Assembly (NCBI GenBank): GCA_964483025.1
Contig: CAYZZT010000003.1
Span: forward strand, 1 to 39,014
DNA from: an uncultured Candidatus Saccharibacteria bacterium
Lineage (GTDB): Bacteria > Patescibacteriota > Minisyncoccia > Phycocordibacterales > CAIZIN01
Length of the DNA stretch: 39,014 nt
Direction of reading: 5' to 3'
Under the pieces are notes generated by a model that searched no databases, was not told where the DNA came from, and saw only the letters and a program-made list of their open reading frames with translations. Made by a program: the position numbers and the translations under genes. This document shows positions 7,798-33,805 of this stretch, in pieces; within the stretch, counting starts at the first letter, position 1, and each line of letters begins with the position of its first letter.

Positions 7798-7860
7798 GTC
7801 AGTAAAGCTGTGGTTCTTAAAATTGGTACATAGGTGCTATTTGTGATAGATTGGAAGCTA

Positions 7861-8661
7861 ATGGAAAATAAAAATACATCTTGGGGGAATGTTTCCGACT
7901 GGTATGATGCTACTGTAGAAGACGGGGATAGCTATCAGCAAAAAGTTATACTTCCAAATTTACTTAGGATTGTAGAGCCTAAAAATAGTGTGAAGATTTT
8001 GGATGTGGGTTGTGGCACGGGAGTTTTTGCTCGAGCTTTTGCAGAAAAAGGAGCTAATGTTTTAGGTGTTGATATTGGGAAAGAGCTTATTGAAATTGCG
8101 GAGAAAAAATCTGGCGGTGTGATAAAACAAAATATTTTAGGGCAGATTAAATATTTTGTCGCTTCTGCGGATGATCTTTCAAAAATAAAAGAAAAAGATT
8201 TTGATATAGCAACTATTGTGCTTGCAATTCAAAATATGAAAAATTTAGACAAGGTGGTAGGGGAAGTATTTCAAAAAATAAAAAAGGGTGGTAAATTAGT
8301 TTTAGTTATTAATCACCCAGCTTTTAGAATTCCACAGAATAGTGATTGGTATTATGACGAAAAAGATAAAATTCAATACAGAAAAATTGCTCGTTATATG
8401 AGTGAAATAGAAATTCCTATTTTGATGAATCCCGGAAACAAAAATAGTAAAAAAACATATTCATTCCACCGCCCTTTGCAAGTATATTTTAAATCTTTAG
8501 CAAAGAATAGTTTTGTTATTACAAAACTTGAAGAATGGATTTCTCATAAAGAAAGTCAAAAAGGGCCAAAGAAAAATATAGAAGATAGTGCAAGGAAGGA
8601 GATTCCTATGTTTATGTGCATCGTTGGGCGGAGTACCGCCCCGCAGACTAACGCAGACTAA
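7861..8661 (+). CDS. class I SAM-dependent methyltransferase
   Basis: ILDVGCGTG motif I, NHPAF, FHRPL; ATG 7861 preferred; the last residues are repeat-derived. Confidence 0.9.
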   Translation: MENKNTSWGNVSDWYDATVEDGDSYQQKVILPNLLRIVEPKNSVKILDVGCGTGVFARAFAEKGANVLGVDIGKELIEIAEKKSGGVIKQNILGQIKYFVASADDLSKIKEKDFDIATIVLAIQNMKNLDKVVGEVFQKIKKGGKLVLVINHPAFRIPQNSDWYYDEKDKIQYRKIARYMSEIEIPILMNPGNKNSKKTYSFHRPLQVYFKSLAKNSFVITKLEEWISHKESQKGPKKNIEDSARKEIPMFMCIVGRSTAPQTNAD

Positions 8662-8662
8662 A

Positions 8663-8812
8663 GTCACGAGTATTTTTCTGTTGAAAAATCTCTCGACCCC
8701 GACTCGACCAAAAGTATTTTTCTACTGAAAAATCTTTTCGTCATACCTCAGCTCGTCAGCTTCCGGTCTTGCATTCGGGTACCTCCCCGAACTCACCGTC
8801 GCGCTCCGTCTT
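8663..8812. repeat. structured intergenic repeat family member (also 11040-11138 and 38890-39014)
   Basis: Shared core GTGAGYT..hairpin..GCAAGRYCGGA and ATTTTTC-N3-GAAAAAT hairpins in all three loci. Confidence 0.7.
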
Positions 8813-10843: not shown

Positions 10844-11156
10844 GGTAGTTGCTGTTAGATATTTTAATATTTTTTATTATCCTCGACCTTATCAGTCTGA
10901 AAATAAATCCGTATCTAATTCATGGATTCAAATTCCTACCGACTGGATTCCGGCCTTCGCCGGAATGACAGAGGGGACAAGGATAACTATAGGGAATCAT
11001 GAATTCAAGTCTGCGTCAGTCTGCGTATAGTCCGCGTAAGTCAAGAATATTTTTCTGGTGAAAAATTTCCTGACCACGTCTCACTCGCCTTCGCTCGCTC
11101 CGACCTTGCGCTTGGGTCCTTCCCCAAGCTCACTGCGAGGACAGTAATCTGTCCTA

Positions 11157-13613: not shown

Positions 13614-15329
13614 TTATCGAAACACACTCCAAACATGGTCTGTTTCTATATACCATTTTTCTATATCAGCAAATCGGTCACTTGGAAGTACTATTTTCCC
13701 AACAGAAAACCCTTTTATTTCTGTTGGTAAAATATAAATGAAATCAGGTGAATACATAAATACTGCTGGCATATCTGTTAGAATTTCTTTCTCAATTTGT
13801 TGGTACATTGTTGTTCTTTTGTTTAAATCATTTGTTATCCGAGAGTCTTCGAGAAGTTTGTCTATTTTTGTATTTGTATACATTGAAATATTTAATCCTG
13901 GATCGTTGCGTTGTGACGAATGCCAAAAGGCATATAAATCAAGTTCTCGCCCAACTACTTCACCAAAAAATAGAGCATCATATTTTCTCGGGCGAATTAT
14001 AGTTTGGTTAAGATCTGTCATTTCAAAAATATTTATATCAATTTTTGCACCAAGTGCCTCCCATTGTTTTTTTATAATTTCAGCAGATTGTTTTAGCTCC
14101 GTTGCATCTCCGGTTGAAATTGTAAAGGCCAAAGTTTCTGTTTTTGCCTTTGTTTTCAATTCGTATATACCTTCTGCATTTTTCTTCCAGCCAGCTTTTT
14201 CTAGAATAGCCTGGGCATTACTTACAGAAGATTCATTTGTAGTTGAATTAATTGAAGTACTTTTTGCTAAACCTTGGGGAATTGGACTTAAAGCTTCTGT
14301 TCCAAAACCATGTAATGTTTCTTCTAAAATTGCTCTACGGTCTGTCACAATATTTAATGCTAAACGTACTTCTTTATGTGTAAAAATAGGATTATGATTT
14401 TGATTAAAGAAGATCGCAAATACTTGCGGTAGGGGATAACGCTCTATATTTGAGCCAGTTTTTTCTAATGCCTGTGCTGTTTCTCCAGAAATTGAATGAA
14501 ATGATTTAAAATCTCCTTTTTTATATGCATCGACAAGGGTTTTTTCATTTTGATAAAAATTTAATTTAATTGAGTTTATATATGGGGTACCTAAAGTGTA
14601 ATGATTAAACGACTCTAAAGTTATACTTTCAGGAATTCCAGATCCATTTCTTGACACTTTGGAAATTTTATATGGGCCAGAACCTATCGGTTCAATATTA
14701 AATTGGCTAAATGCAAATTCATCTGTGCCAGCATCTTTCCATATGTGTTTTGGCAAAATGCCCAATGTGGTATTTTCTATAAAAGGAACATATGTTTGTT
14801 TTAGAGTGAATTGTATTGTTTTATCACTAATTTTTTCTACACTAACACCATCCCAGTTTGCACGTTTTGGACTTTTTAAACTCGGGTCTTGAATTTTTTG
14901 AATTGTAAAAAGAATATCATCTGCAGTAACTTTTGCACCATCGTGAAATACTGCGTTTTCTATAATGTTGAAGGTGTATGTTTTTCCATCGTCAGATATA
15001 GAATAATCTGAAGCTAAGTCTGGAACAAATGTTCCATCTGGTTTTGCTTTTAAGAGTCCTGAATAAACTAAAGATGAAAGATCTCTGTCTGTGTCAGAAA
15101 AAGCTAGGGTTGGGTTTATGTATCTTGCTGTGCCTATCAAACCCTCAGTCAAAGAACCTCCTTTTTTCGGAATTTCTGTAAGGAAAAGTGAATTAACACT
15201 AGAGATTGTTGTGAAAGCAGTAATTAGAGCAATAATTAATAATAGTGAAAAAACAGATTTTTCACCTAAACTAAATGAGGTAATTGCCTTGCGAATTGAA
15301 TCGCGTATTAATGCTATTCTATTTTTCAC
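13614..15329 (-). CDS. ABC transporter substrate-binding protein, family 5 (peptide/nickel)
   Basis: N-terminal TM, PDLA, FHDG..VTADD, PIGSGPY, VRLAL; GTG start. Confidence 0.92.
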   Translation of the reverse strand: MKNRIALIRDSIRKAITSFSLGEKSVFSLLLIIALITAFTTISSVNSLFLTEIPKKGGSLTEGLIGTARYINPTLAFSDTDRDLSSLVYSGLLKAKPDGTFVPDLASDYSISDDGKTYTFNIIENAVFHDGAKVTADDILFTIQKIQDPSLKSPKRANWDGVSVEKISDKTIQFTLKQTYVPFIENTTLGILPKHIWKDAGTDEFAFSQFNIEPIGSGPYKISKVSRNGSGIPESITLESFNHYTLGTPYINSIKLNFYQNEKTLVDAYKKGDFKSFHSISGETAQALEKTGSNIERYPLPQVFAIFFNQNHNPIFTHKEVRLALNIVTDRRAILEETLHGFGTEALSPIPQGLAKSTSINSTTNESSVSNAQAILEKAGWKKNAEGIYELKTKAKTETLAFTISTGDATELKQSAEIIKKQWEALGAKIDINIFEMTDLNQTIIRPRKYDALFFGEVVGRELDLYAFWHSSQRNDPGLNISMYTNTKIDKLLEDSRITNDLNKRTTMYQQIEKEILTDMPAVFMYSPDFIYILPTEIKGFSVGKIVLPSDRFADIEKWYIETDHVWSVFR

Positions 15330-28044: not shown

Positions 28045-28270
28045 GGTTTTATCTGGCTCGGATGTAATTAAAATTTTCTCAAGTTTTGGTTTTGCTATAT
28101 TTTCTCAAAAAGGAAGTCATATTAAATTACGTAGGGAACTAGGTGGGGCAAAACAAACTCTTGTTATTCCAAATCATAAAGAAATTGATAAAGGAACCTT
28201 GAATGAAATAATAAAACAGTCATCAAAATATATTTCATCCGAAGATTTACAAAAAGAATTCTATCAATAA
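28031..28270 (+). CDS. hicA: HicA-family toxin
   Basis: MPKL..LSG.DVIK....GF.....KGSH, VIPNHKEIDKGTL..I. Confidence 0.9.
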   Translation: MPKLKVLSGSDVIKIFSSFGFAIFSQKGSHIKLRRELGGAKQTLVIPNHKEIDKGTLNEIIKQSSKYISSEDLQKEFYQ

Positions 28271-28412
28271 AAAAGCCCCCGATGGAGACGAACTCCATAA
28301 GGGTCTTTTTCGTAGGAATAACTATATACTACTATATATGACCACAAAGTGTCAAGGCGGGCTGTGGGCTGAATAGTGGACTTTTTTGGTGATTTGTGCT
28401 ATAATTAAGGGT

Positions 28413-29072
28413 AGCCATGTTAGACAATCGCTCTGCGAAAGCAGGGAGGAAAGTCCGAACACGATGTCAGTGCAAAGCACTGACCGCGGAACGTCGCAGA
28501 CTAGACGCGGACTAACGCAGACTTTTGAATTCAGAATTAATTTTGAATTCTAGTCAGCGTGGTCTGCGTACAGTCGGCGTGAGTCTGCGGTTAATGCTTT
28601 GCATTAACAAAAGGTAGCGGGTAATCCCCGTCGCGTCCACAGAATGAGTGGCGAGAGGTGCGAGCAGTGACGCCCGAGCTGAAAAGCAGAGGCTTCCTTC
28701 GGGAAGAATTTTATGGAAACATAAAAGTGAAACGGCTAAATCCTTACCAGCGTGCAAGGCCGTGACCGATGCGAAGCATCGGAAATTCGAATATCGAATA
28801 TCGAAATTCGAAACAAATTGAAAAATCAAAAGAATTAAATTTTAAACAAATTCAGGACTTGGATCTCCGTGATTACACGAAGATGACAGAAATGGGATTG
28901 TTTTGAATTTAGAATTTTGAATTTAGATATTGTTTCGTGCTTCGGATTTTGAATTTCGTGCTTCCGCTGCTTCGCAGCGGTAGTGCCGCTCGAGGGTGGT
29001 AGTAATATCACTCCCAGATAAATGATTGTCTCCATTTTACGATGGAACAGAATTCGGCTTATCAACATGGTT
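28413..29072 (+). ncRNA. rnpB: RNase P RNA (~660 nt, with two large hairpin insertions)
   Basis: GAGGAAAGTCC at 28446, GTGAAACGG, AGATAAATGATTGTC pairing with GACAATCG, ACAGAATTCGGCTTA at 29047, P1 AGCCATGTT/AACATGGTT; TGCTATAAT upstream. Confidence 0.93.
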
Positions 29073-29085
29073 CATTCATATGACA

Positions 29086-31318: not shown

Positions 31319-31468
31319 GGTTTAAAAGTTACAAGTTATCAAGTTTGTAAAGTTGGAGGGTTTTGCCAAAGGCAAAACCCTCCTGTTTTCCTATTTTACT
31401 TTATAAACTTTATGAACTTTATAACTTTATGAACTCGCACTTTTGTGTTATAGTACGGCAACAATTAA

Positions 31469-33805
31469 ATGAACAACATTCGAAACTTTAGCATTATTGC
31501 GCATATTGACCATGGGAAAAGCACCCTTGCAGATCGTATGCTTGAAATCACTCACACTGTCGAGGCACGAAAAATGCACGACAGGGTTCTTGATGATATG
31601 GAGCTAGAAAAGGAGCGTGGCATTACAATCAAAATGCGCCCCGTTCGGATGGTGTACCATCCGCGCAGACTTACGCAGACTATGGCGCAGACTACGCAGA
31701 CTGAAATACAGGATGCGCAGACTACGCAGACTGGAATTCAAGAAGAAAAAGATGATGAATTTTTGTATAAAGATTTATCATATATGATTAGAGGTGCGGT
31801 TTTTGCAGTGAAGAAAGAGCTTGGGTTAGGACATAAGGAAAGTGTTTATCATAAAGCTCTTGAGTTGGAATTTAAAAAAGTCGGTATTAATTTTGAAAGT
31901 GAGAAAATTGTATGTGTTGAATATGATGGTGAAAAAGTTGGCGCATATATTCCAGATTTTGTAATTGAGGGTAAAATATTAATTGAACTCAAAGCTTTGC
32001 CTGAAATAGGAAGACCGCAAGAAGAACAAGTATGGAGTTATCTAAAGGGTTCAACTTATAAATTGGCAATGTTGGTAAACTTTGGCAGTACGGATGTAAC
32101 TTTCAAACGACTTGTATTTGATTCTGCACGAGAAAAGTCTGCGTCTAGTCAATCTGAATCTGCATTTCAGTCTGCGTCGTCTGCGTCCAGTCTGCGTAAG
32201 TCTGCGCAGATTGAGGGTGAGTACATCCTCAATCTGATTGATACCCCGGGGCATATTGATTTCTACTACGAAGTATCGCGTGCCCTAAAGGCCGTGGAAG
32301 GCTCTATTTTGCTCGTGGATGCCACTCAGGGGGTGCAGGCGCAAACACTCACCACCCTTTCTATGGCTCGTGAATCTGGGCTTGTAATCATCCCAGTTCT
32401 TACAAAAATAGACTCTTCACTTTCTCGGGTAGACGAAATTAAGCATGAAATGATCAAACTTCTTGATTGTGAGGAAGAAGACATTATTTGTGTTTCTGGA
32501 AGAACGGGCGAAGGGGTTGATCTACTTTTGCAAGAGGTTATTCGCAGAGTTCCACCGCCAAAAACAAAGGATGTTGGGCCTAAAGATGTGCGTGCTTTGA
32601 TTTTCGATTTCCAATATTCCACTCACACAGGTGTGATTGTTTTTGTGCGAATGTTTGATGGAAAAATAAAAAAAGGTGATCAGCTTTTATTTAAAATTGC
32701 GAATGAAAAATTTACTGCACTTGAAGTAGGGACATTTAATCCACAAGAAACACCAAAAGATGAATTAGTGGCGGGGGAGATTGGCTACATTGTAACTGGA
32801 ATAAAAAGACCCGGTATTGCATCTGTTGGTGATACCATAACATCCACTTCGCATCCACTTTCCGCACTTCATGGATATATGACACCAAAGCCGGTTGTGT
32901 GGGCTTCTGTATATCCAGAAAGCCAGAACGATTTTAATGGGCTTCGCCAAGCTCTTGAACGTTTGAGACTTTCTGATTCTTCATATGCCTTCGAAGAAGA
33001 ATCTTCTGGTACACTTGGACGTGGTTTTCGTTGTGGTTTTCTTGGTATGCTTCATTTGGAAATTATTACAGAAAGATTGCGAAGAGAATTTAATTTAAAT
33101 TTAATTGTAACAACTCCAAGTATTACTTATATTGTTACAAACAGACAAGGTAAAAAAGAAACAATTTATTCTCCTTCAAAATTTCCTGAATATGGTGAAG
33201 TGACAGATGTGGAAGAGCCGTGGGTGCATATGACCATAATCACTCCACCTACATATATTTCCGCTATTATGCAATCTCTTTTTGAACACGAAGCGGAAAT
33301 TGGAGATTCAGAAAACTTTGGAGATGATAGAACTTCAATATCTCTTATGATGCCTTTGCGTGAGCTTATGCGAAACTTTTTTGATGAATTAAAAAGTGTG
33401 ACTTCTGGCTACGCTTCGCTTTCATATGAAATTGGAGAATTTAGAAAAGCGGATGTTTGCAGAATGGATATTTTAATAAACGGAGAACCAATGGTGGCTT
33501 TTACAAAAATAGTTTCAAAAAGAAGAGTGGAAGAAGATGCTAAAAAAGCTGCAGAGAAATTACAAAAGGTGATGCCCCAGCAAATGATTATTGTGAAAAT
33601 TCAGGTGAAAGCTTTGGGTAGAATTATTGCATCAGAAACTCTTTCAGCTTTGCGAAAAGATGTGACTCAACATATGTATGGAGGAGATATTACTCGAAAG
33701 ATGAAGCTTCGTGAAAAACAAAAGAAAGGAAAGAAAAAAATGCAGGCAATGGGAAGTGTGAATATTACGCATGAGGTTTTTCTCAAAATGATGAAATCGG
33801 ACTAG
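31469..33805 (+). CDS. lepA: elongation factor 4 with an in-frame ~180-aa insertion
   Basis: IRNFSIIAHIDHGKSTLADR, ERGITIK, LIDTPGH, GFRCGFLGMLH, RKDVT..MYGGDITRK.KL. Confidence 0.97.
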   Translation: MNNIRNFSIIAHIDHGKSTLADRMLEITHTVEARKMHDRVLDDMELEKERGITIKMRPVRMVYHPRRLTQTMAQTTQTEIQDAQTTQTGIQEEKDDEFLYKDLSYMIRGAVFAVKKELGLGHKESVYHKALELEFKKVGINFESEKIVCVEYDGEKVGAYIPDFVIEGKILIELKALPEIGRPQEEQVWSYLKGSTYKLAMLVNFGSTDVTFKRLVFDSAREKSASSQSESAFQSASSASSLRKSAQIEGEYILNLIDTPGHIDFYYEVSRALKAVEGSILLVDATQGVQAQTLTTLSMARESGLVIIPVLTKIDSSLSRVDEIKHEMIKLLDCEEEDIICVSGRTGEGVDLLLQEVIRRVPPPKTKDVGPKDVRALIFDFQYSTHTGVIVFVRMFDGKIKKGDQLLFKIANEKFTALEVGTFNPQETPKDELVAGEIGYIVTGIKRPGIASVGDTITSTSHPLSALHGYMTPKPVVWASVYPESQNDFNGLRQALERLRLSDSSYAFEEESSGTLGRGFRCGFLGMLHLEIITERLRREFNLNLIVTTPSITYIVTNRQGKKETIYSPSKFPEYGEVTDVEEPWVHMTIITPPTYISAIMQSLFEHEAEIGDSENFGDDRTSISLMMPLRELMRNFFDELKSVTSGYASLSYEIGEFRKADVCRMDILINGEPMVAFTKIVSKRRVEEDAKKAAEKLQKVMPQQMIIVKIQVKALGRIIASETLSALRKDVTQHMYGGDITRKMKLREKQKKGKKKMQAMGSVNITHEVFLKMMKSD
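31663..32207 (+). mobile_element. GxxExxY (PD-(D/E)xK nuclease) element with terminal inverted repeats, inside lepA
   Basis: GHKESVY, PDFVIEGKILIELKA, LVNFG; perfect 19-bp IR GCGCAGACTTACGCAGACT (31663) / AGTCTGCGTAAGTCTGCGC (32189-32207). Confidence 0.9.

Follow-up and report, generated by a model that had tools for sequence, protein, structure and literature searches.

Rickettsia palindromic elements (RPEs; Ogata et al. 2000 and 2002, as described in the review PMC10969869) are palindromic stretches of selfish DNA found in frame in housekeeping genes, and the passage describing them names no enzyme. Nucleases of the PD-(D/E)XK type include homing endonucleases, such as I-Ssp6803I and the VSR/DUF559-type I-Bth0305I, and a table in the same source gives the function of the family PF13366 as 'Unknown' (PMC3424549). 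A third kind of element, the IStron, joins a group I intron to an insertion sequence (IS) element (PMC4227781). The present analysis concerns a stretch of 39,014 nucleotides (nt) from an uncultured Candidatus Saccharibacteria bacterium (contig CAYZZT010000003.1), hereafter the window, which is part of a 770-kb genome of 36% G+C in 88 contigs (G000). Within it, the gene lepA, which encodes elongation factor 4, carries a cassette consisting of a GxxExxY nuclease gene placed between two inverted repeat arrays, or arms. This cassette is probably the autonomous copy of a mobile family of the candidate phyla radiation (CPR, or Patescibacteria), translated within LepA as a guest domain. The nearest known kinds of element are in-frame palindromic selfish DNA and homing-type nuclease genes, and there is a fair chance that the cassette forms a class of its own. 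A search of the literature, with supplements outside its scope, found no description of GxxExxY/PDDEXK_3 cassettes, or of in-frame palindromic or homing elements in CPR/Patescibacteria.

The open reading frame (ORF) of lepA extends from 31469 to 33805 on the plus strand and encodes 778 amino acids (aa), compared with about 598 aa for orthologues of the same genus. Pfam finds its GTP_EFTU domain broken into two stretches by PDDEXK_3 (PF13366; aa 101-214, E 1.2e-30, 106.7 bits against a Pfam cut-off of 22), with EFG_C and LepA_C also present, and the NCBIfam model TIGR04256 (GxxExxY) matches the insert at E 9.9e-33 (113 bits against a cut-off of 35). From the first to the last repeat unit the insert covers 31664-32206, that is, 543 nt or 181 codons free of stops, and it interrupts the LepA G domain at the beta2-beta3 hairpin turn, after the GITIK motif of switch I and before DTPGH. 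The nuclease domain (31769-32110, plus strand) is read in the lepA frame and carries the motifs GHKESVY, PD and ELK. It begins without an in-frame ATG of its own, so that, barring internal non-ATG initiation, the nuclease is probably made solely as part of LepA. An initial annotation of this DNA had described an in-frame insert of about 180 aa in the G domain, with an intact GHKESVY / PD..ELK nuclease and no intein motifs; all three descriptions were borne out, the last by the absence of any Hint or intein domain from the Pfam results. The lepA insert is real and far beyond chance.

The array unit is CGCAGAC(T), repeated at a spacing of about 10 nt. The left arm (31664-31739, plus strand) is formed by six exact CGCAGACT units followed by GGAATTC and is translated as RRLTQTMAQTTQT..., and the right arm (32136-32206, minus strand) by four exact inverted units plus variants, translated as SASSQSESAFQSASSASSLRKSA. 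The six exact units lie on the plus strand at 31664-31732 and the four on the minus strand at 32136-32206, with variant units between, as the initial annotation had counted them. The perfect 19-bp terminal inverted repeat that it had reported proved to be the core of a 23-nt repeat (96%; 31659-31681 / 32189-32211), to which the outermost units belong. Its description of the arrays as stop-free was likewise correct, in that none of the six frames of the unit, as read from the sequence, contains a stop. The window holds 17 copies of CGCAGACT against 0.36 expected, a count that was reached in 0 of 100 shuffles.

Comparison with close relatives revealed that the site can be empty. In all five same-genus genomes lepA lacks the insert, is 89-94% identical and has a 10-residue loop instead, and the distance between GITIK and DTPGH is 26-32 residues in 23 of the 29 lepA loci of the order, against 212 here. 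A domain fixed across the clade, which the initial annotation had named as the outcome that would speak against a selfish element, is therefore not what is seen, and the empty site it proposed to look for was present in each of the five genomes. Between filled and empty sites of lepA, as well as of the genes uvrA, uvrB and gap described below, a few loop codons are replaced and an inverted copy of the host flank is gained.

The filled allele is also present in public lake metagenomes, the DNA of this organism being found in runs X1-X7; among RNA runs, none was listed as containing 31450-32450. A 733-nt contig of run X4 spans 31584-32316, and thus the whole element, with 0 differences; contigs of X5, from another study, bridge both junctions with 0 differences; and in X6 a strain about 5% diverged shares the right junction. 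In X7 a population variant has a right arm longer by a single 9-nt unit (window 32144), so that the arms change by whole in-frame units. Two 'skipping' joints (597 and 605 nt) were considered as empty alleles and set aside, as they have other letters between the two sides or short sides and 88% likeness; they are read as lepA of other organisms.

The cassette recurs in other hosts. When 401 genomes of the order were searched with the 131-aa insert, 54 had a match at E <= 1e-8. The best 20 matches, which share 45-100% identity and include the copy described here, are all contained in open frames of 521-907 aa, and in each of these nested copies the host frame is kept without a stop through left arm, nuclease and right arm. 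Weaker matches are found in frames of 128-180 aa, with one exception of 327 aa. Five of the nested copies are in LepA, at the same loop and each from a different family; 14 are in RecG, all at a single site bounded by the DEQH and TATPIPRT motifs; and one is in GatB, where the cassette occupies the site of a solo arm in the source genome's own gatB. Maximum-likelihood analysis places the GatB nuclease among those of LepA in a single supported clade (96/88), and the RecG nucleases group with weaker support (68/87). Units of the CGCRGA type, in plus orientation on the left and minus on the right, accompany the other 19 nested copies with the exception of L069, and one lepA of the order (genome G022) has at the cassette site a cargo-less palindrome of related units, 27 aa in length. 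Free-standing GxxExxY homologues from other genomes of the order were also surrounded by inverted, lineage-specific arrays, recognized by eye in 8 of the 8 displayed, with units such as ACGAAT, ACGGAT and CACGGAA. An association of the repeats with GxxExxY genes elsewhere, on which the initial annotation had also made its proposal depend, was thus found at nested and free-standing homologues alike; since the arrays accompany the nuclease and their unit varies with its lineage, they behave as expected of binding sites.

A wider search, in which a collection of 5.8 billion proteins was queried with residues 60-260, gave 194 clusters at E <= 1e-10. PF13366 was present in all 120 of the clusters listed, of which 116 are of LepA type, two of GatB type and two of leucyl-tRNA synthetase (LeuRS) type. 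In four entries (P0101, P0110, P0078 and P0085) the domain lies within proteins of GatB or class I aminoacyl-tRNA synthetase (LeuRS-type) architecture, whose genes are additional hosts of the LepA-type nuclease lineage. The names given by the sources of the 120 clusters are elongation factor 4, GTP-binding protein LepA and GxxExxY protein, with one 'hypothetical protein'. One of the LepA-type entries carries the label Nanoarchaeota in its source. By the names of these proteins, the relatives of the source genome belong to the Patescibacteria/Parcubacteria group.

Conservation of the nuclease is pronounced. Residues E31, Y34, D70, E80 and K82 are invariant in 27 homologues, and both GxxExxY and the E...D...E-x-K pattern are kept in all 30 rows of the alignment. 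In the closest pair of recG copies the ratio of nonsynonymous to synonymous divergence (dN/dS) is 0.073 for the nuclease (dS 0.72) and 0.060 for the host RecG (dS 0.82), compared with 0.39 for the arms (dS 0.44). The nuclease is, on these substitution ratios, under purifying selection; the higher dN/dS and lower dS of the arms suggest constraint on their nucleotide sequence, as DNA or RNA, and not on the peptide. An AlphaFold2 model of the 778-aa LepA, built on a 56-row alignment, has a mean predicted local distance difference test score (pLDDT) of 82, with 93-98 in the nuclease (aa about 100-216), mostly 85-94 in the LepA domains, and below 50 in the stretches encoded by the arms (aa 67-96 and 220-246). 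The arms are predicted to encode two disordered linkers of about 30 residues. Modelled by itself (pLDDT 91), the domain has a restriction-endonuclease-like fold, for which the nearest Foldseek matches are Cas4 SSO0001 (E 9e-4, TM-score 0.55), lambda exonuclease, RecE and Hjc-type resolvases, a modest likeness with TM-scores of about 0.5. A search of PDB sequences with the nuclease gave no match.

Arms without a nuclease are abundant in the source genome, which contains 94 exact copies of the 8-mer, and 45 arrays with two units or more, for a single nuclease copy. The usual arm is about 38 nt long and consists of a unit, 2 nt, a unit, 3 nt, a unit, 2 nt and a last unit, followed by a (G/T)GAATTC-like core, and across the order the unit is kept as CGCRGA in spite of differing reading frames. 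Genes with an in-frame solo arm of four units, of which two to four were detected, are uvrA and uvrB (contig C15, 3719-3758 and 7000-7039), gap and gatB (C20, 3721-3759 and 5331-5348), a tatD-like gene (C33, 1907-1945), a dus-like gene (C7, 318-335) and a gene for a membrane protein (C54, 503-520). Empty alleles of uvrA, uvrB and gap are present in the genus. Both uvrA and uvrB are filled in the relative G001 as well, the uvrB arms differing in units and spacers between flanks that are about 90% identical. In the window, a solo arm of two units with the standard AGTA-loop hairpin (8642-8659, plus strand) replaces the last codons of the ORF at 7834-8661, which ends in ...CIVGRSTAPQTNAD* with its stop codon supplied by the repeat, and relatives end in ...CIEC(V/T/I)K(V/A)*. 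Another solo arm, of three units, is intergenic (11008-11036, minus strand). A dispersed module (...AATATTTTTCTnnTGAAAAAT...) often adjoins the arms, as in the window at 8660-8740 and 11037-11075 and in contig C8 at 13900-13960; the C8 element (13760-14249) has two arms around about 410 nt of non-coding repeats of the AATATTTTTCTnnTGAAAAAT type, with no nuclease gene in between.

The family also reaches an RNA gene. A cargo-less palindromic copy of the arms, with three and four units around a GAATTC core, is found at 28495-28589 inside the gene for RNase P RNA. This gene (type A, 28411-29075) scores 47.6 bits against the Rfam model, and its relative in G005, of 335 nt, scores 107 bits; the low score is explained by two palindromic insertions relative to the G005 RNA, one being the cargo-less CGCAGACT element (about 28470-28610) and the other an AT-rich palindrome of about 215 nt (about 28765-28980). 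The RNase P RNA of G002 has a different insert at the first of these sites. An Rfam scan by E-value of 28200-29000 returned weak or spurious matches only. Hairpin halves flanking the cargo-less element were considered as conserved RNase P sequence, an idea that was dropped as the hairpins do not align with the RNA of the relative.

Where the arms meet their hosts, short hairpins are formed. At the left junction of lepA (31646-31663, plus strand), a 7-bp stem with a TGTA loop abuts the first unit, its 5' half being the host codons R-M-(V) and its 3' half their reverse complement. At the right junction (32207-32236, plus strand), a 13-bp stem with one G-T pair and an AGTA loop abuts the last unit, its 3' half being the host codons (Y)ILNL and its 5' half their reverse complement. 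A perfect hairpin of at least 6 bp ending no more than 2 nt from the outer edge of the arm was found for 24 of the 45 arrays, compared with 149 of 5000 random positions. In intragenic copies the outer half of the stem consists of host codons and the inner half of their reverse complement. A rule by which the outer half would be host sequence at every hairpin was rejected, as it fails at gene-end and intergenic copies and holds for coding copies only. Intergenic and gene-end hairpins share the consensus AGGnnnG-AGTA-CnnnCCT, with stems that vary by compensating changes. At three sites compared (the end of the ORF at 7834-8661, and the C5 and C24 sites) relatives without the array have neither half of the hairpin, and G001, which has an array at the C24 site, has another compensated stem and retains the AGTA loop. 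AGTA as a cleavage site was left as speculation, since the loops of the recG copies differ.

Among the five lepA copies, left stems were found in four (7, 10, 10 and 15 bp) and right stems of 10-16 bp in all five, each fitting the codon choice of its own host; in the 23 unexpanded lepA loci the best stems are of 0-7 bp. The recG copies have a left hairpin in 10 of 14 cases and a right one in 4 of 14. Empty alleles of lepA, uvrA, uvrB and gap have no inner halves, and the source genome's own empty recG, a single case, has no pre-existing hairpin at the recG site. Inner halves may arise during insertion, for example by snap-back synthesis or from hairpin-capped ends, or later by templated correction of quasi-palindromes; under either origin the pairing is maintained and a structure-specific step is likely. 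Folding of 31636-32250 as a single strand gives a three-way junction (-211 kcal/mol, z -9.8) in which the left hairpin, the stem of the paired arms and the right hairpin follow one another without any unpaired base. In three further loci (L009, L014 and L027, of genomes G012, G036 and G032), other AT-rich palindromic repeats widen the loop that the cassette occupies here in lepA to 46-59 residues, and L009 and L027 again show a hairpin that uses the host R-M codons (11 and 7 bp). Several repeat families appear to share this loop as a hot spot.

A course of events that could produce these features may be outlined as follows. The cassette would be transcribed and translated together with lepA, the arms giving floppy linkers and the nuclease folding as a separate guest domain, so that LepA would stay whole. 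The nuclease may bind the repeated units, whose spacing is close to one turn of the helix, and drive the spread of the family. Its cut could fall on empty target sites, in the manner of a homing endonuclease, or on the three-way junction of the arms and flanking hairpins, with host polymerase, ligase and recombination completing the joining, and passage between genomes would occur through DNA uptake. Solo arms and cargo-less palindromes would then be non-autonomous relatives or remnants. A selfish element tolerated as a domain, one of the possibilities raised by the initial annotation, fits the empty alleles, the in-frame copies in lepA, recG and gatB of other families, the purifying selection and the independent domain of the model.

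Several points weigh against this account of a translated mobile cassette. Read-through translation is deduced from the reading frames, and the activity of the nuclease, its substrate and its role in mobility are putative. To our knowledge, PD-(D/E)XK enzymes are unable to ligate. In lepA, uvrA, uvrB and gap, comparison of filled with empty sites revealed no direct target-site duplication, so the duplication sought at the suggestion of the initial annotation did not materialize, and the event was not a classical cut-and-paste insertion. Between G000 and G123 the nuclease and its host LepA have diverged alike (dN 0.28 and 0.29), which leaves ancient vertical descent with many losses possible for the lepA copies. 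Finally, the very stable three-way junction is also compatible with a process at the RNA level.

Among the known systems, the RPEs, as far as their description goes, resemble the cassette in several ways: both are palindromic and present in many copies in a reduced genome, lie in frame in unrelated housekeeping genes where they add extra peptide loops, are absent from orthologues, and occur also in an RNA gene and at intergenic sites. RPEs, by the same description, encode a conserved peptide only and have a unique palindrome, whereas here one copy carries a conserved PD-(D/E)XK nuclease and the arms are arrays of 8-mers. The arms, unlike those elements as described, abut hairpins that pair with the host flank, and nuclease lineages keep to one site of one host gene. 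This last trait is shared with homing endonuclease genes: one site in a conserved gene is occupied sporadically across distant lineages, close relatives have empty alleles, and the nuclease phylogeny follows the site. Homing endonuclease genes, however, ride in introns or inteins or stand free, and are without the terminal inverted arrays and cargo-less derivatives seen here; with no intron ribozyme and no Hint domain, the present insert appears to stay in the protein. IStrons, as far as described, are similar in that a mobile element is harmless to the gene it interrupts, but they use self-splicing of RNA, in place of which there is here in-frame, stop-free translation and no ribozyme.

Miniature inverted-repeat transposable elements and the autonomous transposons with terminal inverted repeats offer another parallel, with terminal inverted repeats, one coding copy and many short non-coding copies. 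The cassette departs from them in having no DDE transposase and many single-arm copies, and in that the host flank is copied inverted and not direct. In repetitive extragenic palindromic (REP) sequences and their associated tyrosine transposases (RAYTs), a single-copy enzyme gene is similarly flanked by inverted units and accompanied by many solo hairpin-bearing units; the RAYT enzyme is of the Y1/HUH type, and that of the cassette is a PD-(D/E)XK enzyme. A link to Y1/HUH transposases was examined and discarded: the source genome has three Y1_Tnp genes of 236-246 aa (C4 9766-9990, C67 370-705 and C22 8936-9178), flanked by other repeats and not by CGCAGACT arrays. REP-like palindromes accompany the C67 and C4 genes and direct repeats lie upstream of the C22 gene, and the three may be RAYT/REP-type systems apart from the CGCAGACT family. 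From these comparisons a broader, tentative proposal may be put forward, to which somewhat less than an even chance is given: GxxExxY cassettes would be a distinct mobile class and a third way beside introns and inteins, in which the nuclease stays in the mature protein, the three-way DNA junction is the substrate for copying or insertion, and the cassette is the missing autonomous partner of RPE-like palindromes.

Among the alternatives, removal of the insert from the transcript is the least improbable. The arms would pair, the hairpins would align the exon ends, and an endonuclease, perhaps the encoded PD-(D/E)XK protein, whose fold is common to tRNA-splicing endonucleases, would excise the insert together with an RNA ligase; or the ribosome would bypass it. 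The tight three-way junction predicted above speaks in its favour, as does the presence of the cassette's palindrome inside the RNase P RNA gene; an archaeal RNA-splicing endonuclease (3p1z) is among the weak fold matches (rank 38, E 0.04). A spliced insert, though, would need to be neither in frame nor free of stops, and the 20 nested copies are both. The solo arms in uvrA, uvrB and gap keep the frame just as well, with no second arm there to pair with them. As the hairpins contain the conserved R-M and YILNL codons, excision of the junction structure would delete essential residues. No match to an Rfam intron was obtained, and the gathering-threshold scan of the window returned four tRNAs only, in keeping with the view of the initial annotation that the insert is neither an intein nor a recognizable intron. 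As for bypass, the hop in gene 60 of phage T4 is roughly 50 nt, which the 543 nt of the insert far exceed. Excision or bypass is thus unlikely, and the pairing of RNA arms for either purpose, which the initial annotation had offered as its other possibility, is not supported by these observations.

A further alternative to a translated selfish cassette is that the nuclease has been domesticated as a functional domain of LepA, the fusion being adaptive. Strong purifying selection on the nuclease would be expected of such a domain, and the architecture combining LepA with PF13366 is common among the clusters listed. The domain is nevertheless absent from the five genomes of the genus, a nuclease-bearing lepA was found in just 5 of the 401 genomes of the order, and the cassette resides also in recG, gatB and LeuRS-type genes. 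The arms are conserved as DNA across reading frames, the genome's 45 arrays extend to intergenic sites and to an RNA gene, and G022 retains only the cargo-less palindrome at its lepA site. Domestication is on this evidence very unlikely. Still less probable, to the point of being remote, is an unusual intein, translated with LepA and then removed by protein splicing: its position in frame at a conserved site of a housekeeping gene, its nuclease and its sporadic distribution are all intein traits, yet Pfam reports no Hint or intein domain, the junction residues vary among copies (P|R...Q|I here) and lack a conserved Cys/Ser/Thr or His-Asn, and the linkers are encoded by repeats and predicted to be disordered. 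An assembly chimera or misjoin at the repeats, suggested by the multi-copy arrays and by contigs that break nearby (loose ends at 32169 and 32206), has next to no probability given the X4, X5 and X6 contigs and the recurrence of the architecture in 120 listed independent protein clusters.

The cassette of this ultra-small freshwater bacterium most likely lives neither as an intron nor as an intein but as a guest domain, translated within a surface loop of LepA. This work adds comparisons with empty alleles of the genus, contigs from natural populations, estimates of selection, structure models, a census of solo arms and the rule of the junction hairpins. For annotation, more than 100 database entries named 'elongation factor 4' or 'GxxExxY protein' would be chimeras of host plus guest. 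The family PF13366, whose function is listed as unknown, would gain a candidate substrate in repeat arrays and hairpins, and in-frame palindromic repeats, the mobility of which had no enzyme, would gain a candidate one. If the reading of a translated guest is true, selfish nuclease genes need no splicing machinery to colonize essential genes, it being enough that they can be translated and leave the host structure unharmed, and this would explain part of the unusually long and insert-rich proteins and RNAs of the CPR.

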